A stretch of 64,000 nucleotides of DNA from Verrucomicrobiia bacterium (GCA_025451535.1 JANWKE010000009.1:11917-75916); one strand, 5' to 3'; shown: positions 3,127-43,202, counted from the first letter of the stretch. Translations and numbers: made by a program. Notes: generated by a model not told the origin, from the letters alone.

Positions 3127-4635
3127 TCAGGATTTAAACAGCTTTTCCACCTTCGCCTTCACCGCCTCATCCATCTTGATCAACGGCGGCCAAGCGCGCT
3201 TGAAGCCTTCGCCGGGCAGTTTCTTCGTTGCATCAATGCCCAGCTTGCTCCCGATGGCCATTTCGCTCGTCGCGTGATCGAGCACGTCGGACGGGCCCTT
3301 GGTGAAGATGCTGTCGCGCTGCGGGTCGGTGTTGGCACAGAGACGGAACAACACCTCGCTCGTGTTGTGTACGTCCACGTCGTCGTCCACCACCACGATG
3401 TATTTCGTGAACATCATCTGGCCCATGCCCCAAAGGCCGTGCATGATCTTGTACGCCTGCATTGGATAGGTCTTCTTGATGCTGACGAACACCAGATTGT
3501 GAAACACCCCTTCCGCCGGCAGCGCGATGTCCACAATTTCCGGAAAGTTCATTTTGAACACCGGCAGGAACAATTTCACGCTCGCGCTGCCGATGTAGAA
3601 ATCCTCCATCGGCGGCATGCCCACAATCGTCGCCGGATACACCGCGTCCTTGCGATGCGTGATGGCGGTGATGTGAAAGACCGGATACGGCTCGGGCAAC
3701 GTGTAATAGCCGGTATGATCGCCGAACGGCCCTTCATCGCGCAGCGGTTCCTTGGGGTCCACGTAACCTTCAATGACAAAGTCGGCGTTGGCGGGGACTT
3801 CGAGGTCATTGGTCTCGCACTTGACGAGTTCAACGGATTTTTTACGGAGATAACCCGCCAACAGAAATTCATCCAAGCCGTCGGGCAGCGGCGCGGTGGC
3901 GGCGAAGGTGAACACCGGGTCGCCGCCAATGAAAATGCTGACAGGCATGCGCGCACCGGTTTCATAATAACGGCGGCCGTGTCGCGCGCCGACTTTCTGG
4001 AGCTGCCAGTGCATGCCGGTGGTGCGATCGTCGTAAATCTGGATGCGGTACATGCCCACGTTGCGTTCGCCGGTATCCGGGTCTTTCGTTACCACGCAGG
4101 GCAGCGTGATGAAACGTCCGCCGTCCAAAGGCCAGCACTTCTGAATCGGGAGAGCGGAATGCGGAGTGCGGAGTGTCGGGAGAGAGTCACCACTTTCATT
4201 CCGCATTCCGAGTTCCGCATTCCGCACTAAATGAATGACCTCTTTGCAGGGGCCGTCCTTGACGGTTTTCGGTTTGGCGTGGCGCAGATCGAGTGCCTGG
4301 CCGAGCAGTTTGATGGCTTCACGAAAACTAGTCGGCGGCTTGGCTTTCATCAACGAACCCAGTTCGGCGGCGACTTCATTCACAGAATCCGCGCCCAGAC
4401 TCATGGCCATGCGTTTCCACGAACCCATGGTGTTGATGGCGACTGGAAACGGCGAGACTTCGCCGTTGACGGTCGGCTTTTCGAACAGCAACGCCTTGCC
4501 ACCGTTCGGCGATTTCATTTCGCGGTCGGCGATTTCAGTGATTTCGAGTTCGGTGGCGACGGGCTGGGAGATGCGCTTGAGTTCGCCGGCTCGGTCGAGT
4601 TGCCCGATAAAATCGCGGAAGGAATCAAAAGCCAT
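3127..4635 (-). CDS. ubiD: UbiD-family (prenyl-FMN dependent) aromatic acid decarboxylase
   Basis: From MAFDSFRDFIGQLDRAGELKRISQPV... through ...CWPLDGGRFITLP...GMYRIQIYD... to the C-terminus, the sequence is typical full-length UbiD. The start is set at the internal ATG (complement of 4633-4635), because the ORF-track extension to 4968 overlaps the rhomboid gene. Confidence 0.9.
   Translation of the reverse strand: MAFDSFRDFIGQLDRAGELKRISQPVATELEITEIADREMKSPNGGKALLFEKPTVNGEVSPFPVAINTMGSWKRMAMSLGADSVNEVAAELGSLMKAKPPTSFREAIKLLGQALDLRHAKPKTVKDGPCKEVIHLVRNAELGMRNESGDSLPTLRTPHSALPIQKCWPLDGGRFITLPCVVTKDPDTGERNVGMYRIQIYDDRTTGMHWQLQKVGARHGRRYYETGARMPVSIFIGGDPVFTFAATAPLPDGLDEFLLAGYLRKKSVELVKCETNDLEVPANADFVIEGYVDPKEPLRDEGPFGDHTGYYTLPEPYPVFHITAITHRKDAVYPATIVGMPPMEDFYIGSASVKLFLPVFKMNFPEIVDIALPAEGVFHNLVFVSIKKTYPMQAYKIMHGLWGMGQMMFTKYIVVVDDDVDVHNTSEVLFRLCANTDPQRDSIFTKGPSDVLDHATSEMAIGSKLGIDATKKLPGEGFKRAWPPLIKMDEAVKAKVEKLFKS
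4152..4228. repeat. imperfect palindrome built from GCGGAAT/GCGGAGT heptamers, inside the ubiD reading frame
   Basis: Left arm agcggaatgcggagtgcggagtg, right arm cattccgcattccgagttccgcattccgcact. The 12-nt gcggaatgcgga (4154-4165) is the exact reverse complement of tccgcattccgc (4214-4225). Confidence 0.7.
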
Positions 4636-4693
4636 ACGGGCGCGAGGCTGGCATAAAATAACGCAGCTGGCAATGCGGGGCTGAGAGAACAGG

Positions 4694-5839
4694 TCAACGA
4701 ACCGGCGTTGACACAACGGGCGCGGGTTCCAATTCAACTTTGCGCCAGAGAAACCACAGCGCCACGCCGACGGCGGTGCCGCCGAGGTGTGCCAGTGACG
4801 AAACGCCATTGAAACCGGCCACCTGCTCGTAAGCGCCAAAACATTGCAGGAGCAGCCACAGCAGAAACGCGCACCAGGCCGGGAATTGAAGCCATTTGAA
4901 ATAAACGTAGTAGTAACGGAACAGAATCCCGAGTTTGGCATGCGGAAATTTGAAGGCATAAAACGCAATCAAACCGGAAATGCCGCCACTGGCTCCGATA
5001 CAGGGAACGTCGCCCCGTGGATCAGCCGCGACATGCAGAAAATCTCCCACGATCGCCGCCAAAAATACCAACAGCAGCCAGCGTTTCGAGCCGAGATAAT
5101 TTTCCACGTGAACACCGAAGATAATCAGGAAATAGAGATTGCTGACCAGGTGAAAAATTCCGCCGTGCAGAAAGAACGAGGTCAAAAAGGTCAATCCACC
5201 GTAACGCCAGGCGTGGTCGGGAATCAGCCCGAAATTCTGAACAACGTTTTCCAAATCGAAGAAGGCCCAGATACTGACGGCAGTAATCACGAGTGAAAGC
5301 GACAGGGTCGCCATGGGTATGCGTGTCAGCGGATCGGAGTCCATTTCAACGGGCAAACCGAACAAGGCCGGAACCGCTTTCCAGCTGGCGTCCGGTTCCG
5401 GGTCTTCCTCCTGTGCCTGTTTGGCCATTTGCTGGACTTTGTAAATGGCCAGCGCTTCCCGGGCTCCCTGAGGCAACTCCTTTTCGTCCGTTTCGCCCGG
5501 TTCTCTGCGTGGCGGGGGTGGCGGCGGAATCGCTTCGTATTCCGCCGCGTCAAACCAGACAAACTCGCATCGTTTGCAAACGTCAATTTCCAACATCTGA
5601 CCGGCCAAACCCATGGCCACGTGCACCATGGCGCGCAAACAGATCGGGCAGGACTTGCCATCATTCTTTGTCGTGTTGATTGCCCGCGACCAGATAGCAG
5701 AGACCCGGTCATTGCCGATGGCAGCCCGTAAGACCGGAACGCCTACGGCCCGGCCGCCGCATTGGTCGCAGTTCCAAAACAACCCTTTCGGCCCCGGTGT
5801 GCGCGTCAATGCGGTACCGCAATTTGGGCAGGTGAACAT
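4694..5839 (-). CDS. rhomboid-family intramembrane serine protease with N-terminal zinc-ribbon domains
   Basis: CPNCG...CDQCGG and CPIC...CKRC zinc ribbons, six-TM core with GASGGISGL (catalytic Ser) and AHLGG (His). Confidence 0.85.
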   Translation of the reverse strand: MFTCPNCGTALTRTPGPKGLFWNCDQCGGRAVGVPVLRAAIGNDRVSAIWSRAINTTKNDGKSCPICLRAMVHVAMGLAGQMLEIDVCKRCEFVWFDAAEYEAIPPPPPPRREPGETDEKELPQGAREALAIYKVQQMAKQAQEEDPEPDASWKAVPALFGLPVEMDSDPLTRIPMATLSLSLVITAVSIWAFFDLENVVQNFGLIPDHAWRYGGLTFLTSFFLHGGIFHLVSNLYFLIIFGVHVENYLGSKRWLLLVFLAAIVGDFLHVAADPRGDVPCIGASGGISGLIAFYAFKFPHAKLGILFRYYYVYFKWLQFPAWCAFLLWLLLQCFGAYEQVAGFNGVSSLAHLGGTAVGVALWFLWRKVELEPAPVVSTPVR

Positions 5840-9420: not shown

Positions 9421-9534
9421 GCGTTGGCGTCGGGTTACCCGCGATTTCGGTCGGTTCAAATTAGCAGCCCGCCCGCCCGGACGTAAAGTCCGCAGATTTG
9501 CTCCATGCTCGTAAAAGATTTCATAAAAAATTCC

Positions 9535-9563
9535 TTGGCAAAAGTGCGCGGCGGGCGTAGAAA
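9535..9563 (+). promoter_or_regulatory. candidate sigma70-like promoter for the riboswitch leader
   Basis: TTGGCA, 17-nt spacer, TAGAAA, about 20 nt upstream of the riboswitch P1 stem. Motif match only. Confidence 0.25.
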
Positions 9564-9585
9564 CGGAATGTTCTTTGAAACAACG

Positions 9586-9729
9586 CAGTCAAATGTCTGG
9601 GAACCCGGTGAAAATCCGGGACGGTTGCGCCACTGTAACGGCTACAAATTCCCCGAGCCACTGTTCCGCGCTGCGGAACGGGAAGGCGGAATGAGGTTTG
9701 AGGCCGAAGTCAGGATACCGGTTTGGCTG
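9586..9729 (+). promoter_or_regulatory. cobalamin (B12) riboswitch aptamer
   Basis: GGGAACCCGGTGAAAATCCGGGAC..GCGCCACTGTAA core, GAGCCACTG...CGGGAAGGC, and B12 box GAAGTCAGGATACCGG. The closing helix cagtcaaa (9586-9593) pairs with tttggctg (9722-9729). Confidence 0.85.
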
Positions 9730-10013
9730 TGCTCGTCTGGGAAGTTGATTGTTGAGAGTTGATAGTCGAATGCCGGCAGGCGGTTTTCTCTATCAACCAT
9801 CAACGGTAGACCATCAACCCACCCACTTCTCCGTCAAAGAGAAGGATGAGGCCAGCCTGTTGAACGGTTTTCGACAGGATTCGTGGGATGCCTTCATTCT
9901 CCGTTTTGCCGGGGTCTGGAGGTTTTTTCATTTTCAGGCCCCGCGCTGGTCTCTCAACTGTAAAACCACCCGGCTCTTGCATGCAAGGCCGGGCCAAACT
10001 GAAAGATCAGCCA

Positions 10014-10814
10014 ATGAAAAAAGTCTGTTTAATGCTGGCGTTGGCCAGCGGGTTCGTCATTCCCACCATCACGCGCGCGCAATTTGCCAGCGGCGTGTAC
10101 GATTACACCGAAGGTAGCGGCGTGATTGCCGGTTACAATGATCCGACGGTTGCGTTGGGCGGCCCCTCGACCCAGACAATGGATCCGACCTATGGTAATT
10201 CTCCGGTTGACCCGTTTGATGCACCGTATCTTTCCAGCCAGATAGTCGGGGTGGGCACCGGCGGTTCCATAACGCTGCAATTCAACACGCCGATTCAAAA
10301 CAACCCGGGTAATCCGTTCGGCGTGGATTTTATCATCTTCGGGCACGCGGGTTTTATTGAAGATTTCAGCACCGGCACCGCCGTGGACGGCTCGCTTTAT
10401 ACCGGTGGCACCAGCGATGTGCGCGTATCGGTGAGCATGGACGGCACGACCTTTTACACTTTGAATCCAGCGTTGACTCCCCAGGTTGATGGCCTTTTCC
10501 CGACCGACGGAAGCGGCAATCCGTTCCTGCCGGTCAATCCGGCCCTGACGGCGGCCGATTTTGCCGGCCAGGATTTGGCCGGAATCCGCGCCCTTTACAA
10601 CGGGTCGGCCGGCGGCGCGGGTTTCAGCCTGGCTTGGGCGACAGATGCAAATGGCCAGAGCGTATCGTTATCATCCGTCAATTACGTCCGGCTGACGGTT
10701 CTGAATGATGGAACCCCGGCATACGTTGACGCGATTTCAGTGGTGCCGGAACCGGGAACGTGGGCGCTGACGTTGACTGGTGCGGGGTTGTTTCTGCTGC
10801 GACGGCGCGCCTGA
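10014..10814 (+). CDS. PEP-CTERM sorting-domain surface protein, function unknown
   Basis: Signal peptide MKKVCLMLALASGFVIPTITRAQ. C-terminus VPEPGTWALTLTGAGLFLLRRRA has the PEP motif, a TM helix and a basic tail. The start is set at the internal ATG with the signal peptide. Confidence 0.85.
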   Translation: MKKVCLMLALASGFVIPTITRAQFASGVYDYTEGSGVIAGYNDPTVALGGPSTQTMDPTYGNSPVDPFDAPYLSSQIVGVGTGGSITLQFNTPIQNNPGNPFGVDFIIFGHAGFIEDFSTGTAVDGSLYTGGTSDVRVSVSMDGTTFYTLNPALTPQVDGLFPTDGSGNPFLPVNPALTAADFAGQDLAGIRALYNGSAGGAGFSLAWATDANGQSVSLSSVNYVRLTVLNDGTPAYVDAISVVPEPGTWALTLTGAGLFLLRRRA

Positions 10815-10818
10815 TAAC

Positions 10819-11790
10819 ATGCGCATCCGTTTGCTCATTTTGTGGGGCCTGGTTGCCGCCTCGGTCAGCGGGGCGGCAACTCTCGAGGAGGATTTCTCCA
10901 GCAACCCGCTGCAGAACGGCTGGAAAATCTTTGGCGACACCAACCTGTTTCAATGGAATGCCACCAACCAGGATCTCGCTGTCACCTGGGATTCGTCGCA
11001 AACCAACAGCTACTTTTATCATGCGTTGGGAACCATTCTCGCCCGGGACGACAATTTTCATCTGAATTTTGACCTGATGTTTCAGGATTACACGAATGGC
11101 ACCACACCGGGCAAGCCGTACGACTTTGAGGCGGCCGTTGGTTTCCTAAATCTCACCAACGCCACGCAAACGAATTTCTCGCGTGGCGCTGGCATCAACA
11201 AAACATACGGCCCGGATAATCTGGTCGAGTTCGATTTCTTTCCGGCCTTTTCCAGCTACCAACCGACCATCAGCCAGGTCATCGTCTCCACCAACAACGC
11301 CTGGTTATACAACAACAATAATCTCCTCGACCTGACGCCCGGCCAATGGTTCCACGTGGACGTGGATTACAACAGCGCGACCCGGACGCTTACCACCATC
11401 ATAACCAACAATGGTGTCCAATACGGCATGACCCAGACGATTCTGGTGCCGACCAATTTTGATTTTCGTGTCACCGCCATCTCCGTGAACAGTTACAGCG
11501 ACCAGAACGCCACCGGCTCGATCATGGCGCACGGCACGGTGGATAATTTCGTCATTACCGTTCCGTCATCGCCTGTGCAAAATTTCAGCGGCAGCTTCAC
11601 CGACGGCGTCTGGCAAACCCAATTTCTCAGCCGGAGTAACTGGCTTTATTCATTGCAACGTTCGCCGGACTTCCAATCTTGGACGAACATCTCATCAACG
11701 ATGCCGGGCAACGCGACGAATCTGTCCCTGCAAGACACCAGCCCGCCGGCAGGCGGGGCGTTTTACCGGATCAGCGCTCAAAGACCATGA
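10819..11790 (+). CDS. secreted hypothetical protein (beta-sandwich/LamG-like by composition)
   Basis: Signal peptide MRIRLLILWGLVAASVSGAA. Starts 5 nt after the upstream stop. N/T/S-rich, beta-rich sequence with no recognisable catalytic motif. Confidence 0.75.
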   Translation: MRIRLLILWGLVAASVSGAATLEEDFSSNPLQNGWKIFGDTNLFQWNATNQDLAVTWDSSQTNSYFYHALGTILARDDNFHLNFDLMFQDYTNGTTPGKPYDFEAAVGFLNLTNATQTNFSRGAGINKTYGPDNLVEFDFFPAFSSYQPTISQVIVSTNNAWLYNNNNLLDLTPGQWFHVDVDYNSATRTLTTIITNNGVQYGMTQTILVPTNFDFRVTAISVNSYSDQNATGSIMAHGTVDNFVITVPSSPVQNFSGSFTDGVWQTQFLSRSNWLYSLQRSPDFQSWTNISSTMPGNATNLSLQDTSPPAGGAFYRISAQRP

Positions 11791-12614
11791 AAACACGTGG
11801 CGAGTGGCGGGCGACAAGTGACGTGACACGAAGCACGAAGCACGCCGGGTTGGTGTTTTCCCGTCACGCGTCACGCATCACACGTCACCCGGAAGCCTTC
11901 ACACTGATTGAACTGCTGGTCAGCCTTGCGGTGATTGCGATTCTGGCGGCGATGATTCTGCCGGCCCTGAGCCAGAGCAAACAGTCCGCCTGGCGCGTTC
12001 AATGCACCAGCAACCTGCGCCAGCTGGGCATGGCCACGGAAATGTACTGGGACGACAACAAAGGAAGTTGTTTCCGATACATTTTCGGCGCCACGAACTA
12101 CGGAACCATTTACTGGTTCGGCTGGATTGGGCCGGGACCGGAAGGCCAGCGTCCCTACGATTTGTCATTGGGTGCATTGCACCCCTATGTCAGCGACAGC
12201 CACGTGAGAATTTGTCCCTCGTTGAACTACGCGTTGGCGCAGTTCAAATTGAAGGCCGATGGCGTCGTGTACAGTTATGGCTATAATCTTTACCTCTCCG
12301 CGGCCTCAACCAAACCGCCGGTCGCCGCCGGAACAATTTCGCACCCGGCCGAAACCGTCCTTTTTGCCGACGCCGCCCAGGTCAACGATTTTCAGGCACC
12401 CGCCTCGCCCGCGAACCCGATGCTGGAGGAATGGTATTACGTGGACACCAACACGAGTTATCCGAATGGCCATTTCCGTCATGATCAAAAAGCCAACGTA
12501 GTCTTTGTTGACGGACACGTGGGCCTGGAAAAACCGGTGTCCAGTTCAATCGATCAACGATTGCCCGCCCAATTCGTGGGACGGTTGCGGCCGGAGATTT
12601 TGGTGGTCCCGTAG
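11787..12614 (+). CDS. prepilin-type N-terminal cleavage/methylation domain protein, H-X9-DG (DUF1559-like) family
   Basis: [24 protein letters not shown] pilin-like helix and C-terminal HDQKANVVFVDGH (H-X9-DG). The ATG overlaps the upstream stop (ATGA at 11787-11790). Confidence 0.85.
   Translation: MKTRGEWRATSDVTRSTKHAGLVFSRHASRITRHPEAFTLIELLVSLAVIAILAAMILPALSQSKQSAWRVQCTSNLRQLGMATEMYWDDNKGSCFRYIFGATNYGTIYWFGWIGPGPEGQRPYDLSLGALHPYVSDSHVRICPSLNYALAQFKLKADGVVYSYGYNLYLSAASTKPPVAAGTISHPAETVLFADAAQVNDFQAPASPANPMLEEWYYVDTNTSYPNGHFRHDQKANVVFVDGHVGLEKPVSSSIDQRLPAQFVGRLRPEILVVP
11818..11888. repeat. imperfect heptad palindrome inside the pseudopilin leader-coding region
   Basis: gtgacgtgacacgaagcacgaagcacg ... 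cgtcacgcgtcacgcatcacacgtcac. The outer 8 bp gtgacgtg/cacgtcac are a perfect match, with ACG/CGT matches at 7-nt periodicity inside (17 of 27 positions complementary by hand). Confidence 0.6.
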
Positions 12615-12668: not shown

Positions 12669-14717
12669 ATGATGCGTTTGCGCCTGCTTTCCCTGGGTTT
12701 GGCCGGCTTGAGCTGGCTGATTTTCAACCCGGTTGCGCGAGCGCAAAATGACATGATGCCAGGCGATTTCAACGCATCCTATTGTTACACCAACGATGAC
12801 TTGGGGGCGGTTTATCATCCGGAATCGACCTCGGTCAAGTTGTGGGCGCCGACCGCGAAGCAGGTTCGCCTGCTGTTGTTCGATGATGCGACCAATGAAG
12901 CTTTTCAGATCATTCCCCTGTCGCGCGATCCCGATGGCATTTGGTCCGCCGAATTGAAGGGCGACATGGATGGCAAATATTATTTGTACGAGGTCACACA
13001 TTTGCCCGCGGGGTCGGCCAGGCCGGCGGTTTATCGTGTCAACGATCCTTATGCCCGCGGCTGTTCCGCCAACACTGGCCGGACTTTGATTTATGACCCG
13101 CAAAAAACCAATCCCCAGGACTGGGACCAGGACCATTTCGTCACTTTGAAAAACAACGCGGATGCCGTGCTGTACGAGGTGCATATTCGCGACTTTTCCA
13201 TCAACAAAAATTCCGGCGCCACTGACGGCAACCGCGGAAAGTACTTCGGCATGGTGCAGCCGGGCACGAAAACGCCGGGTGGCGCGGCGAGCGGTTTGGA
13301 TCATTTGAAAGAGCTGGGCGTGACGCATGTTCACCTGTTGCCCTGCTTTGATTTCGCAGGCGGAGACGAACGGCAGAAAGCAGATGAATATACCTGGTAT
13401 AATTGGGGCTACGACCCGGTTCTCTACAACACCCCGGAAGGTTCCTACGCCACGAACCCCAATGGCGCCGCCCGGCAGAAGGAATTCAAGGAGATGGTTC
13501 AGGCCTTTCATCGGAACCAGATCGGCGTGGTCCTGGACGTGGTTTTCAATCACACCGCCGCCACCGGCTCGCGTCCGGCGTCCATTTTTGACAAGGTGTT
13601 TCCGCATTATTATTACCGGATGGACAAGTCCGGCCGTTACGCCAACGGCACCGGCTGCGGCAACGAATTTGCCTCGGAAAAACCCATGGCGCGGAAATTC
13701 ATCATGGATTCCGTCAAATACTGGATGACGGAATATCACGTGGACGGGTTCCGGTTTGACCTGATGGGAGTCTTGGACCGCGAAACCATGCTGGAGGTGT
13801 ATCGCGAGGCCAAAAAAATCAATCCCAGCGCCATCATTTATGGCGAAGGCTGGCAGATGGAACGCGTGTTGCCGGCCGATGAAATGACGACGCAGGCCAA
13901 CGTCCAGGGCACAGGCATCGCCGCCTTCAACGACGGCATCCGCGACAACATCAAGGGAGACAATGCAAACGCCCGCGAAGCTGGATTCGTCCAGGGAGCC
14001 GCACCGCCAGTCGGCGGCATGACCGGATTTCACCTGGAAATCAAAGGCCAGAGCACCGGCAAGGGCGGTCAAGGCATCGAAGTCTTTTCGCCGAACGAGA
14101 CCATCAATTACGACTCCGCCCATGATGACCTTTGTCTCCGGGACAAGCTGTGGTTGTCCGCGCCCGAAGTGCCGGAGGCCATGCGCATCAGCATGGACAA
14201 GTTGGCCGCAGGCATTGTGCTGACCGCCCAGGGAGTTCCCTTCATCCACGCCGGTGACGAATTTCTACGTTCCAAGAACCTCAATTCCAACAGCTACAAT
14301 GACAACGACCCGCGCGTGAATCCGATAGACTGGTCGCTCAAGGACCGGCACATGGACGTTTTCAATTTCTACCGGGGCCTCATCACCCTGCGGCGCGCGC
14401 ATCCCGCCTTGCGCATGACGGACCGGGCGCACGTGGACGAGGCTTTGGATTTCGCGACCGCCGCGCCCGCGAACGTCGTCGAATATGTGCTCAAGAACCA
14501 TGCGAACGGTGACGACTGGCAGACCATCCTGGTGATTTACAACGGCAACCCGGAGCCGAAAGAGTTAAGCGTGACCGGCGATTGGGCCGTCGTGGCAAAC
14601 GACCAAGCGGCGGGCACGGAGACATTGGAAACGGCGACTAACAAAATCCCCGTTGCGCGATTTTCACTCGTGGTGGCCCACACCGGGGGCGCGTACCATC
14701 TTGACGCGAATCATTAG
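12669..14717 (+). CDS. pulA: type I pullulanase (GH13)
   Basis: Signal peptide, a CBM48-like N-terminal region, the YNWGYDP motif, and GH13 conserved regions DVVFNHT, GFRFDLMG, YGEGW, YDSAHDD. Confidence 0.9.
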   Translation: MMRLRLLSLGLAGLSWLIFNPVARAQNDMMPGDFNASYCYTNDDLGAVYHPESTSVKLWAPTAKQVRLLLFDDATNEAFQIIPLSRDPDGIWSAELKGDMDGKYYLYEVTHLPAGSARPAVYRVNDPYARGCSANTGRTLIYDPQKTNPQDWDQDHFVTLKNNADAVLYEVHIRDFSINKNSGATDGNRGKYFGMVQPGTKTPGGAASGLDHLKELGVTHVHLLPCFDFAGGDERQKADEYTWYNWGYDPVLYNTPEGSYATNPNGAARQKEFKEMVQAFHRNQIGVVLDVVFNHTAATGSRPASIFDKVFPHYYYRMDKSGRYANGTGCGNEFASEKPMARKFIMDSVKYWMTEYHVDGFRFDLMGVLDRETMLEVYREAKKINPSAIIYGEGWQMERVLPADEMTTQANVQGTGIAAFNDGIRDNIKGDNANAREAGFVQGAAPPVGGMTGFHLEIKGQSTGKGGQGIEVFSPNETINYDSAHDDLCLRDKLWLSAPEVPEAMRISMDKLAAGIVLTAQGVPFIHAGDEFLRSKNLNSNSYNDNDPRVNPIDWSLKDRHMDVFNFYRGLITLRRAHPALRMTDRAHVDEALDFATAAPANVVEYVLKNHANGDDWQTILVIYNGNPEPKELSVTGDWAVVANDQAAGTETLETATNKIPVARFSLVVAHTGGAYHLDANH

Positions 14718-20864: not shown

Positions 20865-21578
20865 CTATTTTGCTTCCGGCGGCAATTGAAACTCCGGCAC
20901 GGAAGCCGCAATAAGTTTTTCCATCCGGTCAAATGTGGCATCCTCCTGCCCCGGCGGGCAAATCGTGAAATAGGAAACATAGGCCCAGCGTTGCAAAATT
21001 CCGGTAGTCAATAAATCCCGCGTCAACCACCAGATGCGCTGCCAATGGCTGGTTGTCTCTTCATTTTTTGTGACGAACCAAAACACGTAAAGGCCGCGCA
21101 CTTCCTGTTTCCGTCCATCGTTGTCCTGAACAAAATTCGTGATCGTCCATTTGGCGACCCGCAATTGATACGAATCCCGGCCTTCAATCGGAACGTCCAC
21201 CGTTGCTTTTTGGTCAATATGCCAGCCCTGACCCGGGAGGCAAAACTCCGGTTTGTGAATACTGGTTCGGTCCATCCCCATCAAAATAATGTTTCCATTC
21301 ACCCAAAACCCGTTTGTCTCCGTGTAGCGGCGTTGAGCGTAGCTTGTGTCTTTGGGAAGCATGTCCAGGACTGTTTTATCCTGGGGCACACGTTCAGAGG
21401 TGTAACCGAGAACGTGCGCCGGCAAATCAAAATCCATCCTTATATCTCCAGGGATTGGCGCTGCCTTGATGCCGGGCAGGCCGAGCTTTTGATTTTTTTT
21501 GAGCCAGTTCAATGCCCCGCCGCCGCCGGCAATCAATACAACCGCAATGATAAAAACAAGGATTCGTTGGCTCTTCAT
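20865..21578 (-). CDS. exosortase-associated EpsI-family protein
   Basis: N-terminal TM anchor, about 210-aa periplasmic domain. Its start overlaps the exosortase stop (ATGA). Confidence 0.75.
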   Translation of the reverse strand: MKSQRILVFIIAVVLIAGGGGALNWLKKNQKLGLPGIKAAPIPGDIRMDFDLPAHVLGYTSERVPQDKTVLDMLPKDTSYAQRRYTETNGFWVNGNIILMGMDRTSIHKPEFCLPGQGWHIDQKATVDVPIEGRDSYQLRVAKWTITNFVQDNDGRKQEVRGLYVFWFVTKNEETTSHWQRIWWLTRDLLTTGILQRWAYVSYFTICPPGQEDATFDRMEKLIAASVPEFQLPPEAK

Positions 21579-22537
21579 GGCTGTTTGTTTTCCTCTGAAT
21601 CAGTTTTTTCCTCCAACCAGCGGCCGATGAACAACAATCCCAGGAAAGCCGGAAGGTAAGGAACCAGACTAATGAGGGTGCTCTCGTGAACATAATTGCC
21701 CCATTCTTGACCGCCCATGACTGCCGCGATGATAATCAAGAGCATCCGGAGGAGATTTCCCAAAATGGCAAAAGGAATCGCCAACGCCATCATGAACAGC
21801 CGCCGCCAGGGAGAGCGAAGCATCACGAAGCCACAAACCGTGGCGAACAAAACAATGGCCATCAGACTGCGGATGCCACTGCACGCCGCGGCAACGTCGT
21901 ATTGATAGGTGCCCAGCGGATCGAACAGTTGCGTCCCCATGCGCATCACTCCAATCCCCAGAATGTTGTGTGCAAACCACTCCACCAGCGCGGAAACGAG
22001 AAGGCGCAGCGGGAAAGTAATCGGTTCGGATATTGAACTCAAGGGCACGAAAAAAATAAAAAGAAAACACGGGAAAAAGCTGTGGCGCAGCCAGGGGGAA
22101 CCCCACGCCAGTCCCATCAATCCATAAATGCCGGTGAATAACGCAACGATGGAAAGGCGCGGCTCTTGAACCACGTAACCTATAATATGCAACACCAGAC
22201 CCAAACCGACAAGCAGCAGGCCGGGCGGCCAGATTTTCAACGGCAATGCCAGCAATTCCCTGCGTTTCCACCAAAATAAACCAATTACCAAAAATGGAAT
22301 AATGTCTCCATAGGCGTCATCGCCGGAACCACTCTGGCTGTTGTAGGAATTAAACATCCAGTACAACAACGACGGACTATGAATGTAACCAAAGACGGAA
22401 TTGCCCAAAAACTGAAACAGCGCCAGCCACGCCGCCAGCAAAAGGAAAAAGAAACCCTTGTTTGGCAGGCGCCGCCAGCAATCCACGAAATTCGCTTGAA
22501 ATCCCACAGGAGTTCCAGGTTGGGTTTGTTCATTCAT
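21575..22537 (-). CDS. exosortase (EpsH/Xrt family transpeptidase)
   Basis: Eight-TM protein with the conserved Cys motif AAACSGIRSL and downstream Arg/His-containing helices. The start is set at MNEQTQPG (complement of 22535-22537). Confidence 0.85.
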   Translation of the reverse strand: MNEQTQPGTPVGFQANFVDCWRRLPNKGFFFLLLAAWLALFQFLGNSVFGYIHSPSLLYWMFNSYNSQSGSGDDAYGDIIPFLVIGLFWWKRRELLALPLKIWPPGLLLVGLGLVLHIIGYVVQEPRLSIVALFTGIYGLMGLAWGSPWLRHSFFPCFLFIFFVPLSSISEPITFPLRLLVSALVEWFAHNILGIGVMRMGTQLFDPLGTYQYDVAAACSGIRSLMAIVLFATVCGFVMLRSPWRRLFMMALAIPFAILGNLLRMLLIIIAAVMGGQEWGNYVHESTLISLVPYLPAFLGLLFIGRWLEEKTDSEENKQP

Positions 22538-22823
22538 GCACGTACAATTGGAATTTGTTTGATAGCTTATTTTGTTCTTTTGCTCAATCAAATTGTTCTC
22601 TCGCAACAACCCGTTTAGCTGCCGTCCCAACGGCGGAGAATACAAAGGAATTCGTGAAACACTGCGGCGCCAGCCGCCGCCGTTCTGACCCGGGCCGGGA
22701 AACTCCAATCGGCCCGAGGCATTGGTTTCCGTGAATCAGTTTTCATGCCACAATTGCATCAAGTATAACCAGCCTGTGGTCATTCCCTGACTTTTCCTTC
22801 ATTCGTTCATTCGCATTCCTGCT

Positions 22824-23591
22824 TCACGTCAAATTATATTTCTTTAACCCGCAAAGTTGGCCGGCAATTTTGGCGACAAAGAGCGGATTATTCTTGAGAT
22901 AACGTCTGGCCAGCCGGCGCGGCTCGGTACAGAAACGGTAAAACCACTCGAGTCCGCTGTGCTGCATCCAGCGCGGCGCCTGCTTTATGCGGCCGCTGTG
23001 AAAATCAAAAGCCGCGCCGACGCCGATCGTCAGCGTCGCTTCCAGCGTCGGTGAAAATTCCGCCATGAACTTTTCCTGCTTGGGCGTGCTCAAGCCAACC
23101 CACAAAATGTCGGGCCGCGCGACACGGATTTTTTCCCGTAATTCATTCTCCTCGGCAGGATTGAGCGGCCGGAACGGCGGCGTGAATGTTCCCACAATCT
23201 GCATTTTCGGAAAGCGCGCCTTTAATTTTTCGGCCAGCTTGTCTGCCACGCCATCGGCGCCACCGAAGAAAAAGTGACGGCACTGATTTTTTTCGCTCCA
23301 GGCACAAACCTCCAGCATCAGGTCGGGACCATAAACCCGCCGCATTTCAGAATAACCGTGAATTTTGCCCATCCAGACCATCGGCATCCCGTCAGGCGTG
23401 CAGAGAAACGCATGATTCAAAATGGCCCGAAAATTTTCGTCGTTTTGCGCCTCCATGACCCCATGAACGCCGGTGACGCAAATGTAGCCTTTGCGTTTTT
23501 GCCGCACGGCGTCGGCAATCGCTGCCAGCGCCGTTTGCAGATTAAGGACGCTGACGCCGACGCCAAGGACATTGACACGTTCTACAACCAT
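22824..23591 (-). CDS. WecB/TagA/CpsF-family glycosyltransferase (GT26)
   Basis: VNVLGVGVSVLN N-terminus and PKQEKF...IGVGAAFDFHSG...PRWMQHSGLEWFYR signature. Confidence 0.85.
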   Translation of the reverse strand: MVVERVNVLGVGVSVLNLQTALAAIADAVRQKRKGYICVTGVHGVMEAQNDENFRAILNHAFLCTPDGMPMVWMGKIHGYSEMRRVYGPDLMLEVCAWSEKNQCRHFFFGGADGVADKLAEKLKARFPKMQIVGTFTPPFRPLNPAEENELREKIRVARPDILWVGLSTPKQEKFMAEFSPTLEATLTIGVGAAFDFHSGRIKQAPRWMQHSGLEWFYRFCTEPRRLARRYLKNNPLFVAKIAGQLCGLKKYNLT

Positions 23592-23679
23592 TGAATTTAA
23601 ACCGTCACCTGACTTTAGCTTTCATACTTTCACTGGCGCCTTCGCCGTAGCACGGCAATGATGAAATACCTCCGGCCGC

Positions 23680-24723
23680 TCAAGCGGGTTGCAAGGCTCC
23701 CACCATTTTTCCAAAAATCCGGTCAAGGGAATGGCTGATTTTCCAGTCGGGATAGTGGCTTTTTAATTTGCGAAGGTCGCTGATGTAGCAAATGTGGTCG
23801 CCGGCGCGTGCCTGGTCGGTGTAGGTGTAGCTTATTTTTTTACCGGTGAGCGCTTCGATTTTTTGGATGCACTCCAGAATGGAGGCGCTGTTTTCGCGTC
23901 CGCCGCCGAGGTTATAAACCTCGCCCGGCCGCGGCTTTTTCGTGAATTCGGCAAACGCAGCCAGCACATCCGCGCTGTGGATCTGGTCGCGCACCTGTTT
24001 GCCTTTGTAGCCGAAAATCGTGTAACTTTCGCCTGCCAATGCGACTTTGACGAGATAGGAAAGAAATCCGTGCAGCTGAACGCCGGAATGGTTTTCACCC
24101 GTGAGGCAACCGCCGCGGAAAATGCCGACCTTCATGCCGAAATACCGGCCATATTCCTGGGCGACCACGTCCGCCGCTGTCTTGCTCGCGCCAAAAAGGC
24201 TGTGCATGGTCCGGTCAATCCGGCAGTCCTCGCGCACGCCGTTAAAATCCTCCGGTCGCGCGTAGTCCCAGCGCGTCGGCAATTCCTTGAGCGGGATTTC
24301 ATTCGGGGCATCGCCATAGACCTTGTTGGTGGACATGAAAATGAAGACGGCCTCAGGATTCGTAAGGCGTGTCGTTTCCAGCAGGTTGATGGTGCCCACG
24401 GCATTGACATCGAAATCCACAAAGGGGATTTCCCTGGCCTTGTCGTGTGAAGGTTGCGCAGCACAATGGATGATAAGGTCAAATTTTTCCGATTTGAACA
24501 AATCAATGATCTTTTGCCGGTCGCGGATATCCAGTTCGTGGTGGCGAAAATGGCGGGTGGTATGGCGGAGCCGTTCCAGATTCCAGCGGGTGTCTCCTTG
24601 CGGGCCAAAAAACTCACGGCGCAGGTTGTTGTCAATCCCGTGAACCTCATGTCCCTCGCGGTCATAATGACTGACCGCTTCCGACCCGATCAAACCATTG
24701 GAACCGGTAATCAGTACTTTCAT
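23680..24723 (-). CDS. NAD-dependent sugar epimerase/dehydratase (CDP-paratose-2-epimerase-like SDR)
   Basis: [17 protein letters not shown] Rossmann motif and YGASKTAAD catalytic YxxxK. The start is set at the internal ATG 24721-24723. Confidence 0.85.
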
Positions 24724-24881
24724 CGCTGGCAGCATAATTAACCGAAATGCTGATGGCACGCAATTTGTCGCGTTTGCCGGCCGTCTATTCCGGACGCAGT
24801 AATGATTTGGTTTGCTGGTATCCAAAAATGTTTGCACAGTTAATTGTTGTTGCCTATTTTTGATGTTTATTTCCCGGTTTT

Positions 24882-25871
24882 GTGAAACGTGTAATTGTCA
24901 CAGGCGGTTCTGGATTCATCGGCACTCATCTGGTTTCCCATTTGATTAAGCAAGGGCATCAAGTGCTGAACCTCGACAAAAACACGCCGCTGAATCCGGA
25001 ACATGAAAAGTTTCATCGCCCGGCGGACATTCTTGACGCCGCCGCCCTTCACAATGAGTTTGATTCGTTCCGTCCCCAATGGATGTTTCATCTCGCTGCC
25101 CGCACGGATTGTGATGAAACGACCACGGTTGAAGCAGGCTATGCCGTGAATACCGTTGGCGCGGCGAATGTCCTGGCTGCCGCGGCCGCCAGCCCGTCGC
25201 TGGAAAGAGCGTTGATCACCTCTTCCCAATATGTTTGCCGGCCCGGACATCCACCTTCGGACGACCAGGATTATTGTCCGCACACCGTGTACGGCTGGAG
25301 CAAGGTGGAGACGGAACGCGCCACCCGCCGCGCCGGTTTGAAATGCCCATGGGTCATGGTCCGGCCCACAAACATTTGGGGACCGTGGCATCTGCGCTAC
25401 CGAAAACAGGTTTGGCGCGCGATCCAGCGCGGCTTTTATCTTCATCCCGGCGGTGAGCCTGTCGTCCGCTCTTACGGCTATGTCGGCAACGTGGTACGAC
25501 AAATGGCGGGGCTAATGGAGGCTGACACAGCAAAAATCAATGGCAAAACTTTTTATGTCGGCGATGCGCCGCGGGATTTGCGTGATTGGGTCAACGGTTT
25601 TTCTCTTGCCTTGCGAGGCCGCCCGGTGACGGTAGTGCCCCGGCCTTTGTTGCGCACCGTGGCCCTGGCGGGTGATCTCATCGGCAAGGTGCGCGGACGC
25701 GAATTCCTCATCCATTCGTCACGCTATCGCAGCATGATCACTTCCGATCAGGCGCCCATGTCGGCAACATTTGAACTGCTCGGTCCCGGCCCAATTACCC
25801 TGGACGACGCGGTGGCTGAAACCGTCCAGTGGCTTCGTTCGTACGACGGACACGACCGTCTCCGTTTCTAA
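24882..25871 (+). CDS. NAD-dependent epimerase/dehydratase family protein
   Basis: [15 protein letters not shown] Rossmann motif and YGWSK (YxxxK). GTG start. Divergent from the previous gene. Confidence 0.8.
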
Positions 25872-26014
25872 ACACACCCATTTTAAATCAAGCAGCGCCT
25901 GTGCCGGCATCCGGACAGGATTTCCCACGGCCGCCTGGTCGGTGAGCGCGATTCCGGCGGAGGACTCATTTTCCATTGTGCCGGCCGGTGGCTCCCCGTA
26001 GCTTTGAATTCGAA

Positions 26015-26803
26015 ATGGACGATATGGCGACACAGCAAGTCTTTGAGACAGTCTATCGAGGCCGGCAAAGTGCGCTTCACCATATGGCTTACATGCGAAT
26101 GTCAAAAGTGCTGCTCAGCCAGCAGATCCTCCACAAAGCCGGAATTAATCTCGCCGGCAAATCGTTCTTCGACTACGGATTCGGCGCAGGGACCTTCTTT
26201 CGATATTGCCCCTTGAACACGCGGTTGTTTGGGGTCGAAATGGATCCCGTAACGGTGGAAGAGGTGGGGCGAATGCTTGCCCTATGCGGCCATTCGCAGG
26301 TAACGCTGGCTCCCATCGATCCCGAGCACTGGACAACGCACCCGTTGCTGCAGCAATCTTACGACGTGGTGCTCTGCAGCCATGTTCTGGAGCACCTGCC
26401 GGACCCGGTTGATGCCCTGCGAAGGTTGAAGGCGTGCCTGAACCCGGATGGTGCGCTCGTAGTCCTCCTGCCGCTGAACGAGCGCCGAGCCAATCCACAC
26501 CACATTCACACGGTCGATCACGGAAAAATTGTGGATTGGCTGCAGGCGAGCGGGTTGCGGATGATTTGTTATCAGGAAGCTGATCCCTGGACTTATTGGA
26601 CTCAACCGTTCTTCACTCAGGACTCAGGGCCGGGCGCCGGACTCGTCCGAATCCTGGCCCAGGTGTTCAGCCTTGGCCTGGGGATTCCTTCCACCCTGGT
26701 GGGATATCGGATGTGGCAACACCTTTCGAAACCCTTCGGATGGTTGACTTGTTCGAAGCCGACGCAGGCGGCATTTGTGTGCAATCCAATTGCGACTCGC
26801 TGA
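26015..26803 (+). CDS. class I SAM-dependent methyltransferase
   Basis: FDYGFGAGTFF motif I and VLCSHVLEHLPDP motif. The start is set at MDDMATQQ. Confidence 0.75.
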   Translation: MDDMATQQVFETVYRGRQSALHHMAYMRMSKVLLSQQILHKAGINLAGKSFFDYGFGAGTFFRYCPLNTRLFGVEMDPVTVEEVGRMLALCGHSQVTLAPIDPEHWTTHPLLQQSYDVVLCSHVLEHLPDPVDALRRLKACLNPDGALVVLLPLNERRANPHHIHTVDHGKIVDWLQASGLRMICYQEADPWTYWTQPFFTQDSGPGAGLVRILAQVFSLGLGIPSTLVGYRMWQHLSKPFGWLTCSKPTQAAFVCNPIATR

Positions 26804-27955
26804 TTATCCGGTGTTTTTCTTCAGCCATTCGCGAACTGCGCCGACGCGTTCGATGGCCATGCGTTCAAAACTGAATTTTTTCGCCTGCTCCAGGCCCCGG
26901 GTCCGGATTTGCCCGCTCAATGCCGGCTCTTCCAGCAACCGCCGCAAGGTCGCCGTCACCAAAGCGCGGTTATTAAAATCAATGATCAATGCGTGACCAC
27001 CGGAAATTTCGTGCGCGATGGGAATATCGTTCAGCACGCAGAGAGTTCCGCAGGACAGGGCTTCGGTGATGGTGCGACCGAATGTTTCTTCGCGGCTGGG
27101 CAGAACATAGGCCAGAGCGTGCCGATACAACGGCGCGAGCCATTTGGCATCCACCCAGCCCATCACCCGCACATTGGACTGGAGATCCCGGGTTTTAATC
27201 AATTCGTTGACCGCCGCCGCGCCCCCCCAATCGCCGCCAAGCATGACCACCGGCATTCGAGCGCGGACTTCGGCCGGCAAGTCCGCGTAACCCTCCAAAA
27301 ACAGCGGTGCCTGCTTGTAATGATGCAAATTGGAAACCCACAAAAGATAGCCCGGTTTAATTTGCAGCGCTTTTTCCAGCGCCCCGGTCTCGCCCGGTTC
27401 GCGCCGCGGAGTGAATTCCGGCAGCGTCCCTTCATGACTCACGAACAGTTTGCCCGCGCACGCCGGAAATGCCTCGCGCAATCGCGACGCGGTGAACGCG
27501 GAATTGGCAATCACCAAAGATGCCTTGCGCATCCCGCGGGTGATGTTCCAATTTCGATACCAGCGCCGCAAAAAACCAGGGCAGTTCTGCTTGTCCAGGT
27601 GCAAAAGGGCGTTGACGCCCATGAAGACCGGCAGTGGCGCTCGCACCGGCACGAAACCAATCGTGAAAAGTCCGGCGGCGCCGAGCTGCCTTGACCGCGG
27701 CCCGACGCGAAATTGATCCGCCCATAAACGGGCTTTCATTCGATCATTGGCCGGATATTCACGATCGTAGCGCAGCCGCGGATGTTCGATCCCCATCTCC
27801 TGGTTTGGCCCGGCAAAAACCAGCCATTCCAAATCTTCAAAATGATTGAGGGAATGAACCAGATACTCGCGGAAAAATGTCGTCAGCGCCGTCTGGTGTT
27901 GCGGGTTTTCACAAAGAAATGAAAAGGCGAGCCGGCTGGAAGTTCTCTTTTGCAT
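26804..27955 (-). CDS. glycosyltransferase family 4 (GT-B, EX7E type)
   Basis: C-terminal YRHALAYVLPSREETFGRTITEALSCG motif. The stop abuts the stop of the convergent methyltransferase gene. Start uncertain (27955 or 28039). Confidence 0.8.
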   Translation of the reverse strand: MQKRTSSRLAFSFLCENPQHQTALTTFFREYLVHSLNHFEDLEWLVFAGPNQEMGIEHPRLRYDREYPANDRMKARLWADQFRVGPRSRQLGAAGLFTIGFVPVRAPLPVFMGVNALLHLDKQNCPGFLRRWYRNWNITRGMRKASLVIANSAFTASRLREAFPACAGKLFVSHEGTLPEFTPRREPGETGALEKALQIKPGYLLWVSNLHHYKQAPLFLEGYADLPAEVRARMPVVMLGGDWGGAAAVNELIKTRDLQSNVRVMGWVDAKWLAPLYRHALAYVLPSREETFGRTITEALSCGTLCVLNDIPIAHEISGGHALIIDFNNRALVTATLRRLLEEPALSGQIRTRGLEQAKKFSFERMAIERVGAVREWLKKNTG

Positions 27956-28120
27956 TACACCAATGGCACCCGGGTATTGAATAGCACCGTGCTTTTTCGT
28001 ACAAGAGTTTATTTCCCGGTCAAGCGCGATTAAACTCAATTGCGGCCCAACCGGGCGACCTGCCGGCGGGGGACGAGGAAAACGTTGCGAAACGGTCGGT
28101 AGTTTCTATCCTCAACCTCA

Positions 28121-29764: not shown

Positions 29765-30036
29765 GTAATTTTAATTGAAAACCATGAAATGTTTGTTGTA
29801 GGATGCGTAATAACGAAATCGTCTCACAGTTAAACTGCAATGTGAAAATGATCTACCGGGGACACTTCCGCCTTACCAACTTTTCCGTTTGCCGTACCCG
29901 GTTCACAGATCCGGCTGCTGGCGGACGATTTGCCATTGTGAGAGCCTCATCCCTTCAGCATGCCCGGCCCACTTTCAACCAGGGTGACACCGGTTTGACG
30001 ATAGCAACTTGAAGATGTCTCGAAATAATTGAGGCC

Positions 30037-31712: not shown

Positions 31713-31965
31713 CGCCGCCCGGTAAATACAAGCCGCCAGGCGCGAACCTGGCCGCCATGCTTCCCCCGGTCGTCCGGATGGCAATGGGGACTCGTTCCTG
31801 AAAAATGGGATTGCCACGCCGCCGGCTATCGAGCAAAATTATCCCTCTCATGCAAAATCAATTTGTAGTGGTCGGTGGCGGCGAATTTTTCCGTGTTCAA
31901 CTTGATTGGGCATTGAGCAATTAAACCCCGGACGTTCACCCTTGGTTGTACTCAATACCGATGAT

Positions 31966-38043: not shown

Positions 38044-38335
38044 TGGGCTCTGGATGTTAGACCTCTTAGTGCGCAGGAGTGGACCGGCAATACAAAAAAC
38101 GCAAACTCGGTGCCGAGGACCTGTGACTGGAGAAACCTCAGTTAACCATTGGCCAACAAGAGGTTCTTTTAAGCCGGATGACGCGCAGACGGGGACGTGC
38201 TTTATTTGAAGCCAGCCGCAGGTTCGAGGGGGCAAATTATCATTTTTTGCAAATGTTTTGACAATTTTTGCATTGGAACATTTATGGGAGATGATAAAAA
38301 AGTATTATACCTTTGTGAAAGAAATCCGATTCTTT

Positions 38336-39208: not shown

Positions 39209-39352
39209 CGGTGACTTTTCCCAAGGACGAAGTGATCCAGCCCCAGCAATGCGATTTCAAGAACCATCACCTCACCTCAAAACCGAAACAGACCTCCCAC
39301 TATGAAGACAGTCACAAACAACACAGCCGGTGGACTATAATCCAAATTCAAG

Positions 39353-42193: not shown

Positions 42194-42221
42194 GGAAAAT
42201 TACCCAGCCGATGATGTCATG

Positions 42222-42262
42222 AAATGGAATCGGGGTGCTCGCAATGCATCCCGCTTCCATTT
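42222..42262 (+). terminator. candidate rho-independent terminator
   Basis: aaatggaatcgggg / cccgcttccattt stem with one mismatch, 13-nt loop, followed by a T-containing tail (tttgagtt). Confidence 0.45.
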
Positions 42263-42352
42263 GAGTTATCCGGGAGAACTTTGAGATCGCAGTGCATTTA
42301 ATTCACGGTTAAAAGTTTTGCCCGAAGGTTTCACTTTTGCAAAACTGTGGGC

Positions 42353-43186: not shown

Positions 43187-43202
43187 ACCATCGAGATTTC
43201 AT

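Follow-up and report, generated by a model that had tools for sequence, protein, structure and literature searches.

A conserved cobalamin riboswitch operon of Limisphaerales as a candidate system for corrinoid scavenging at the cell envelope

Introduction

Few microbes make vitamin B12 (cobalamin) and most depend on it, and B12 capture therefore shapes microbial communities. Surface B12 binders under riboswitch control (BtuG, BtuH, BtuJ and BtuK) are established in Bacteroides. To our knowledge, the envelope steps of B12 uptake have been little described outside Escherichia coli and gut Bacteroides. Here we analysed a 64,000-nt stretch of DNA (the window) from a Verrucomicrobiia bacterium of soil or peat (GCA_025451535.1, JANWKE010000009.1:11917-75916), in which a cobalamin riboswitch precedes an operon of three packed genes, here called g1, g2 and g3. 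Together with its relatives, this operon provides a set of candidate proteins for corrinoid handling that is defined by a riboswitch and strictly conserved in Limisphaerales, bacteria that are abundant in soil, peat and freshwater and have few cultured members.

The closest known counterparts, through g1, are BtuH of Bacteroides thetaiotaomicron (BT1488 and BT1956) and the BtuG-BtuH fusion BT1490 (PDB 7BIZ and 8BLW). BtuH binds B12 on the Bacteroides surface with nM to pM affinity and is encoded in riboswitch-regulated loci, and it is fused to BtuG in BT1490 (PMC8941943, PMC10404256, PMC13616437). Over 80% of Bacteroides btuH genes are co-encoded with btuB. Chain B of 8BLW is B. thetaiotaomicron BtuG1, in which the C-terminal ~250 residues form a BtuH domain, and 7BIZ is BtuH2 bound to B12 (PMC10404256, PMC8941943, PMC13616437). 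Other phyla, Verrucomicrobiota among them, have demonstrated binders with a DUF4465 domain, of which GTPAYF is the B12-binding loop (PMC13398666). A literature search found nothing relevant on the present operon or on B12 auxotrophy of Pedosphaera or Limisphaerales.

Results

The riboswitch and its linkage to the operon

The riboswitch and the three genes lie on the same strand of the window:

9574..9740, plus strand: cobalamin riboswitch aptamer, RF00174 (81.7 bits against a gathering score of 31.5, E 1.5e-18)
10014..10814, plus strand: g1, secreted PEP-CTERM-tagged protein, accessory member of the operon (TIGR02595, 25.6 bits against 16)
10819..11790, plus strand: g2, secreted protein, core member of the operon (signal peptide; legume-lectin/ConA-like jellyroll model)
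11787..12614, plus strand: g3, prepilin-type DUF1559/H-X9-DG protein, core member of the operon (PF07963, 29.8 bits)

An initial annotation, made from the sequence alone, had placed a cobalamin aptamer upstream of three tightly packed genes and proposed an RF00174 search. That search returned a match far above the gathering score, spanning model positions 1-189 of 189, which is the only gathering-level Rfam match in the 64 kb. The B12 box (AGTCAGGATACC, 9708-9719) and the core motif (GGGAACCCGGTGAAAATCC, 9600-9618) are both invariant in an alignment of 12 aptamer sequences. The packing was also borne out: g2 starts 4 nt past the g1 stop codon, and the ATG of g3 overlaps the stop codon of g2 as ATGA.

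To place the operon among its relatives, one genome from each of 185,579 species was scanned for relatives of g2. The scan found 197, and the best 80 of these, each from a different species representative, were taken with 6 kb of flanking sequence. All 80 loci come from Limisphaerales/Pedosphaera-type metagenome-assembled genomes (MAGs), some of them mislabelled, and their g2 proteins are 42-86% identical to that of the window. RF00174 was matched at the gathering threshold in all of 11 diverse related loci, with scores of 45-82 bits. A covariance model built from these 11 matches and the window's aptamer detected the riboswitch in 73 of the 80 loci; in each of them it has the orientation of the genes and precedes g1 or g2. 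In exactly the seven loci lacking a match, the contig leaves less than 900 nt before g2. Thus, the recurrence that the initial annotation had suggested looking for was found in every testable species (73/73), which indicates that these genes came under B12 control long ago and that this control has been conserved. The genes around the operon vary widely between loci; their large open reading frames (ORFs) encode AcrB, OEP, MutL, RHS, glycosyltransferases, a MoxR ATPase, a phosphoesterase and others. Since the linkage is kept while the flanks differ, the riboswitch travels with the operon and not with the neighbourhood.

The invariant core of the operon is g2 plus g3. g3 follows g2 in 65 of the 67 loci that have at least 2.5 kb of downstream sequence, and g1 stands between the riboswitch and g2 in 46 of the 73 testable loci. 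In operons that lack g1, the riboswitch lies 190-390 nt directly upstream of g2. Some loci encode g1 and g2 as one polypeptide, in which g1 without its PEP-CTERM tail is followed by g2 without its signal peptide (loci L027, L072 and L079; P0248). Among the top 150 cluster representatives there are 21 fusions of this kind, and a few of these 21 may be read-through gene calls. g1 and g2 were merged in clustering because of these fused genes, and the idea that the two are paralogues was rejected (BLASTP E 2.1). Homologue searches gave 839 matches for g1 and 1079 for g2, all from Verrucomicrobiota MAGs and none with an informative name; a search with the g2 profile gave 694 clusters at 50% identity. 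Some g2 database entries have spurious N-terminal extensions, because translation by public gene callers ran through the riboswitch (peptide ..SNV.EPG.NPGRLRHCNGYKF..; P0244; ORF 9505-9762 in the window).

Structure of the leader

The leaders of the 73 testable loci and of the window (74 in total) were compared. The following elements lie between the aptamer and g1:

9741..9825, plus strand: variable spacer, here containing a lineage-specific GTTGA/TCAAC-repeat hairpin (-29.7 kcal/mol, z -3.4)
9826..9844, plus strand: hairpin 1, CUUCUC / CGUCAAA / GAGAAG (stem invariant in 74/74 leaders)
9845..9898, plus strand: predicted antiterminator helix, 9845-9850 with 9893-9898, enclosing hairpin 2 (RNAalifold consensus of the 74 leaders)
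9891..9928, plus strand: predicted intrinsic terminator (-17.6 kcal/mol, z -3.5)
9945..10011, plus strand: helix burying the ribosome-binding region, 9945-9956 with 10000-10011 (pairing across leaders)

The distance from aptamer to start codon has a median of 248 nt across loci (range 163-386 nt); in the window it is 273 nt by the Rfam boundaries, not the 284 nt first given. All 74 leaders carry the same ~105-nt block after a variable spacer. The spacer measures 15-110 nt in the other loci, and its GTTGA/TCAAC hairpin, present only in the window and in loci L002, L014 and L035, looks like a small insertion or repeat element. The 3' strand of hairpin 1, GAGAAG, continues straight into the antiterminator strand, and we propose that hairpin 1 acts as an anti-antiterminator. 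The antiterminator itself is formed by GAUGAG (9845-9850) pairing with CUUCAU (9893-9898). One of its A-U pairs is replaced by G-C in L045 and L051, a compensatory change, and in the enclosed hairpin 2 (9856-9864 with 9870-9878) all nine pairs show compensatory changes on both sides.

Contrary to the initial annotation, which saw no obvious intrinsic terminator in the leader, folding and comparative analysis place one at 9891-9928. Its hairpin (9891-9922) has a 13-position stem with a 2x2 internal loop and the loop UUUUGC, and is followed by a run of six U (9923-9928). Owing to this internal loop, the stem escaped a simple terminator scanner, which gave no match in the leader. A hairpin plus U-run is predicted in at least 63 of the 74 leaders, at a fixed distance of ~97 nt 3' of the CUUCUCC motif. 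As predicted here, the antiterminator and terminator helices are a classical mutually exclusive pair.

A further conserved helix follows the terminator, in which CGCGCUGGUCUCUCAA pairs with UUGAAAGAUCAG, the latter ending 2 nt before the AUG. Among 70 distinct leaders, 96.2% of cells are paired in this helix, compared with 21-45% in slid controls, and five pairs have compensatory changes on both sides. The helix encloses a hairpin of changing sequence and kept structure. The palindrome noted earlier at 9969-9993 is indeed present and belongs to this arrangement, in which it is the variable inner hairpin of the conserved helix. The leader is thus a clean, deeply conserved two-stage platform, consisting of a terminator and a helix over the ribosome-binding region.

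Two further pairings were noticed in the leader. In the full-leader fold, the terminator 3' arm and U-run can pair instead with a downstream AUUUUCAGGCCCC (9923-9943; 13-bp hairpin), a motif that recurs in many loci. A kissing interaction between aptamer loop L5 (GACGG) and the loop of hairpin 1 (CCGUC) was considered and could not be supported; the two are complementary but show no covariation, given that L5 never changes whereas ~16 leaders have another base or a deletion in place of the loop U.

g1, a PEP-CTERM protein with a BtuH-like domain

The g1 protein has a signal peptide and a PEP-CTERM tail. The Pfam model of the tail, PF07589, scores 18.0 bits in the window, under its cut-off of 20.7, and matches 16 of 26 g1 orthologues; some g1 orthologues do not carry the tag.

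When a profile of close g1 homologues was compared with all PDB sequences, a single match was obtained, chain B of 8BLW (E 9.2e-5). With a more diverse g1 profile, the top two matches were 8blw_B (E 6.9e-6) and 7biz_A (E 0.039), both through the same two collinear blocks, ..S[LI]G.GG.[LI]TV.F...I.N...DF.I.GNA.. and ..GF.I..A.D..G..V.L..[IV].[FY]V[KR][IV].. The matches fall in the C-terminal ~250 residues of 8BLW_B. The AlphaFold2 model of g1 is of modest quality (mean predicted local distance difference test score, pLDDT, 61.8; predicted template modelling score, pTM, 0.65). A Foldseek search of 350,542 PDB chains with this model ranked 8blw_B first (E 5.5e-8) and 7biz_B second (E 1.3e-4), followed by CBM32/discoidin jellyrolls at E ~1e-3. 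The ranking is informative because the BtuH domain has been described as having no structural homologues. In a profile comparison with full-length BtuH2, which was recovered from gut metagenome contigs, hhalign aligned g1 residues 73-228 with BtuH2 residues ~366-568 over 149 columns (E 0.0022); the control comparison with the DUF4465 protein BtuJ2 gave E 0.44.

The corrin-contact and metal-ligand residues of BtuH are Gln333, Phe334, Asn399, Phe401, Glu406, Tyr475, His476, Tyr510, Asp522, Trp577, Ser582 and Glu584 (PMC13616437). Only Phe334 and Asn399 line up in g1, Phe334 with Tyr41, which is near-invariant in g1; over such a distance the alignment is unreliable. The initial annotation described the operon products as having no known B12 function, which no longer holds for g1, whose top matches in both the sequence profile and the fold searches are BtuH's B12-binding domain. 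On this evidence, g1 most likely carries a divergent, shortened BtuH-type domain and is a candidate corrinoid binder.

A link between g1 and DUF4465/BtuJ through the motif DGTPAY, which resembles the GTPAYF loop, was rejected as a coincidence. The motif is present in the window g1 and missing from divergent g1 orthologues, no Pfam DUF4465 match was found in the 26 orthologues, and the BtuJ2 alignment is at noise level.

g2, a lectin-fold protein with a variable cassette

No Pfam or NCBIfam family matched g2. Its AlphaFold2 model is confident (pLDDT 88.4, pTM 0.85) and shows a jellyroll at residues ~20-250, for which Foldseek returned legume lectins (E 1.5e-9 to 1G9F), and a C-terminal beta-sandwich of ~70 residues ending in the conserved FYR..A.RP. 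The likeness to legume lectins is at the level of fold only, with target-normalised TM scores of 0.5-0.6. In hhalign, g2 has no profile similarity to BtuJ2/DUF4465 (E 0.039 over 17 columns).

Within the jellyroll lies a segment that stands out in comparison with the closest relative of the window, locus L009:

11000..11550, plus strand: hypervariable cassette of ~550 nt in g2, about residues 62-245 (drop in identity to L009)

The DNA of the two loci is ~96% identical from riboswitch to pullulanase gene and ~55% identical across the cassette, whose counterpart in L009 lies at 1800-2350. For pairs of loci with g3 identity of at least 80%, the identity of g2 residues 62-245 is 40-60% in 34 pairs and 70-100% in 40, with none at 60-70% and modes at ~48% and ~87%; the N- and C-terminal parts of g2 are unimodal in the same pairs. 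This bimodality implies that the core of the lectin-like domain occurs in two or more allele classes, with exchange between lineages. The invariant residues of the g2 family lie mostly outside the cassette. The cassette fits an exposed ligand-binding or antigenic surface, and it is a matter of speculation that the allele classes reflect cobamide specificity. With its two classes of lectin domain, g2 lends itself to a natural experiment, either on the specificity for cobamides or on how surfaces diversify.

g3 and the sorting machinery

In addition to the PF07963 match listed above, which exceeds the threshold of 21.2 bits, the prepilin motif of g3 is matched by TIGR02532 (22.2 bits against 16.3). 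The DUF1559 match (PF07596, 24.6 bits against 23.3) covers only profile positions 4-28 of 268. TIGR04294 scores 18.8 bits against 19.0, and its motif is readable in the sequence as H-DQKANVVFV-DG. Only the N-terminal helix of g3 matches solved pilins and pseudopilins, and this helix is also all that g3 shares with a second pilin-like gene of the window (38258-39208). We know of no function for the H-X9-DG/DUF1559 family, which has hundreds of paralogues per genome in the Planctomycetes-Verrucomicrobia-Chlamydiae (PVC) group; the papers found that mention DUF1559 give none.

The machines implied by the PEP-CTERM tag and the prepilin signal are encoded in the same window:

20865-21578, minus strand: DUF3485 exosortase partner (PF11984, 56.4 bits)
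21575-22708, minus strand: exosortase EpsH (PF09721, 134.5 bits)
51859-53703, minus strand: secretin (PF00263, 152.5 bits)
53938-54723, 54958-55608 and 56990-58498 (502 aa), minus strand: unassigned ORFs of the secretin/PilM cluster
55612-56691, minus strand: PilM (PF11104, 92.9 bits)

The segment 51859-58498 resembles a pilMNOPQ cluster, and prepilin-type proteins such as g3 could be handled by its secretin/PilM machinery.

Neighbouring genes and other loci of the window

Several operons contain additional genes. In 19 loci, a small Cys_rich_CWC gene, with or without DUF5522, is found at the g1-g2 or the g2-g3 junction; it encodes no signal peptide and is not present in the window (examples are L018 5547-5978 and L045 6973-7257). 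The single paper found to mention Cys_rich_CWC is unrelated. A DUF6580 membrane protein is encoded in 6 loci, and one or two Dph6-like PP-loop ATPases (PF01902) in 7, both only in operons without g1 (L029 7815-9101; L074 7002-8260; L048, L055, L077, L031 and L033). DUF6580 matched no solved structure and no paper mentioning it was found; it is a candidate inner-membrane carrier.

Downstream of g3, the window has the following gene:

12669..14717, plus strand: secreted pullulanase-type GH13 enzyme (CBM_48, Alpha-amylase and pulA_all-beta domains)

A pullulanase gene follows g3 in only 11 of the 80 loci. The 54-nt gap in the window has no terminator-like site, and the gene is possibly co-transcribed as a lineage-specific neighbour outside the conserved unit. 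An ATP-binding cassette (ABC) exporter pair and mdh lie upstream of the operon on the opposite strand, and glmM, ybbR, cdaA and folP lie downstream of the pullulanase gene, also on the opposite strand. These housekeeping genes are the recurrent neighbours across loci, and the idea of a conserved partner such as a transporter was rejected. No TonB-dependent receptor or cob gene was seen near the 80 loci, where not every ORF was scanned against a receptor model.

The initial annotation had pointed to a B12-binding radical SAM gene at 61356-62717. This assignment was upheld by the Radical_SAM match (68 bits), with the B12-binding domain scoring 29.2 bits, under the cut-off of 32.1. The exosortase genes lie in a polysaccharide-synthesis island (20865-33009) with a Bac_transf priming transferase, WecG, epimerases, glycosyltransferases and methyltransferases, in the middle of which is a nicotinamide adenine dinucleotide (NAD) synthase gene (28121-29764). 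The second pilin-like gene, which carries an N_methyl domain, heads a plus-strand locus (38258-47777) encoding a 946-aa immunoglobulin (Ig)-domain protein, KduI, a short-chain dehydrogenase/reductase and a pair of GH88 unsaturated glucuronyl hydrolases, of which one is fused to DUF4861. In this organism, loci for substrate utilisation may generally begin with a pilin-like gene. Ordinary neighbours on the minus strand include an Nramp metal transporter (49496-50905), a UbiD-family decarboxylase (3127-4968) and a rhomboid protease with a zinc ribbon (4694-5839).

Discussion

We consider it probable that this is a B12-repressed envelope operon for corrinoid scavenging in Limisphaerales (Verrucomicrobiota). 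The strict linkage to the riboswitch points to corrinoid acquisition at the envelope that is repressed when B12 is sufficient. The BtuH-like g1 and the g1-g2 fusion, which parallels BtuG-BtuH, point in the same direction, as does the occasional DUF6580 membrane protein inside the operon. The initial annotation had already proposed a surface module for corrinoid capture. This proposal gains independent support because g1 is a remote relative of the surface B12 binder BtuH, and the linkage in 73/73 species and the exosortase and secretin/PilM genes of the window agree with it. It has to be amended in that g1 is only an accessory member (46/73 operons) and that the B12 contacts of BtuH are not visibly conserved in g1.

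From the leader structures we infer an OFF switch. When corrinoid is bound, hairpin 1 would be stabilised and hold the GAGAAG strand, so that the terminator at 9891-9928 would form and transcription would stop. When B12 is scarce, GAUGAG (9845-9850) would pair with CUUCAU (9893-9898), which belongs to the terminator 5' arm, and RNA polymerase would read through. The second conserved helix would bury the region just upstream of the start codon. Of the products, g1 would present its BtuH-like domain after export by the signal peptide and anchoring by the PEP-CTERM/exosortase route, g2 would be a secreted lectin-fold protein with a swappable central cassette, and g3 would contribute a prepilin-type H-X9-DG protein that may take part in hand-over. 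Corrinoid would be bound by g1, g2 or both. The pair g2 and g3 is probably the ancestral B12-regulated unit. g1 would be an add-on, and its frequent fusion to g2 suggests that the two proteins work together physically.

Several observations weigh against corrinoid scavenging as the role of the operon. g1, the only member with a likeness to a corrinoid binder, is absent from 27 of the 73 operons, and g2 and g3 resemble no known corrinoid binder, the nearest folds to g2 being sugar-binding lectins. The similarity of g1 to BtuH is weak, with an hhalign probability of 13%, and the Foldseek match has a query-normalised TM score of 0.41 and a root-mean-square deviation of 12-14 A for a g1 model whose pLDDT is 61.8. 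At the position of Asn399, a metal ligand in the GNA motif, most g1 proteins have Asn and the window clade has His111, and the BtuH2 corrin contacts Tyr475, His476 and Tyr510 correspond to unrelated residues or gaps. No btuB, btuFCD or other transporter gene was found within 6 kb in the 80 loci. Finally, the platform structures leave the coupling between aptamer and platform across the variable spacer without an explanation.

The lectin-like fold of g2 and the sugar-binding CBM32/discoidin modules that come after BtuH among the fold matches of g1 would also suit an operon for B12-responsive surface remodelling or for binding of glycans or cells. B12 would then be a signal rather than a ligand, marking proximity to B12-producing partners or the nutritional state. 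The secreted pullulanase directly behind the operon in the window clade, the other pilin-like gene at the head of the uronate/GH88 locus at 38-48 kb, and the hypervariable cassette of g2, which is typical of exposed adhesins, fit this explanation as well. We nevertheless regard it as unlikely, for two independent searches rank the B12-binding BtuH domain over every sugar-binding module, and the pullulanase gene is found in only 11 of 80 loci compared with the riboswitch in 73 of 73. Moreover, the usual targets of known cobalamin riboswitches (RF00174) are genes for B12 synthesis, transport or B12-independent isozymes.

It is also conceivable, and in our judgement rather improbable, that the proteins sequester or store corrinoids instead of taking them up, serving as an extracellular reservoir or starving competitors, with g3 as a helper in secretion or display and import left to an unlinked BtuB/BtuFCD-type system. 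This would account for the missing transporter gene in or near the operon, and the allelic diversity of g2 fits competition. For BtuJ and BtuH of Bacteroides, a reservoir or relay function without stable association with BtuB has been described (PMC10404256, PMC13616437, bioRxiv 10.1101/2025.07.01.662609). Sequence data, however, do not separate sequestration from uptake, and repression by B12 fits both. A different kind of objection is that the riboswitch and its own terminator might be uncoupled from the genes, which would be transcribed from a promoter between terminator and start codon, so that their co-occurrence would be only positional. A strong terminator does lie ~85 nt before the start codon, and in some loci the terminator and the downstream helix are as much as ~100 nt apart, with variable sequence in between. 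In the window, however, only 16 nt separate the U-run (ending at 9928) from the conserved helix (from 9945), which leaves no room for a promoter, and no sigma-70-like site was found on the plus strand. The order of aptamer, platform, helix and gene is kept in all 74 leaders, whether g1 or g2 comes first and whatever lies upstream, and there is an antiterminator with a compensatory change. An uncoupled riboswitch is therefore very improbable.

Within the corrinoid-scavenging reading, one more specific arrangement is a long shot: g2 and g3 might form a TonB-independent 'fishing-rod', in which g3, assembled by the secretin/PilM machinery, would display g2, with or without g1, on the outside of the cell, where corrinoids would be captured and from where they would be brought into the periplasm. 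There, carriers such as DUF6580 would take over, and the g2 allele classes would tune cobamide specificity. If this were true, it would provide the first ligand for the DUF1559/H-X9-DG family and suggest that the family consists of substrate-capture pseudopilins. In any case, a prepilin-type H-X9-DG/DUF1559 protein is tied here to a specific small-molecule regulon, and binding and genetic experiments are directly possible. If the assignment of g1 is correct, the BtuH-type domain extends beyond the gut phyla and occurs with an exosortase anchor.

As in other DUF1559/H-X9-DG proteins of Planctomycetota and Verrucomicrobiota, g3 has the N-terminal helix with its cleavage/methylation motif, a marginal match to the start of DUF1559 and a readable H-X9-DG motif; unlike them, the g3 group is fixed beside g2 and behind a B12 riboswitch. 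Type II secretion pseudopilins and the tip adhesin complexes of type IV pili are further near counterparts of g3. The leader resembles class I RF00174 termination switches in its full-length aptamer, its B12 box and the mutually exclusive antiterminator and terminator downstream. It differs from them in that a variable spacer places the platform 15-110 nt from P1, and in the second conserved helix over the ribosome-binding region after the terminator. The DUF4465/BtuJ proteins are B12-binding secreted beta-jellyrolls that include verrucomicrobial members from Coraliomargarita (D5EK51) and Haloferula (PMC13398666). The DGTPAY motif of g1 resembles their binding loop, whereas neither g1 nor g2 has profile similarity to them.

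The nearest comparison is with the Btu proteins of Bacteroides. Here, as there, the operon stands behind a cobalamin riboswitch and encodes exported proteins with a cell-surface tether, which for the window is a prediction. g1 shares with BtuH two motif blocks and its best fold matches, both of them weak, and in both systems the BtuH-type domain can be fused to a second surface protein, BtuG in Bacteroides (PMC13616437) and g2 here. Reports of BtuH are confined to Bacteroidota of the gut plus three Firmicutes (PMC8941943, PMC13616437), whereas g1 is found in Verrucomicrobiota. In place of the lipoprotein signal of BtuH, g1 has PEP-CTERM/exosortase anchoring; it lacks the PKD domains, its domain comprises ~210 aa compared with ~270 aa, and the corrin-contact residues are not visibly conserved. 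Unlike the Btu loci, the window operon contains no btuB, btuG or btuFCD, and its partners are a lectin-fold protein and a pseudopilin-like protein. What is new here is thus the different anchor, an operon with no linked outer-membrane transporter, and a g2-g3 core that has no described counterpart. What the two systems probably have in common is the regulatory logic and one shared domain.

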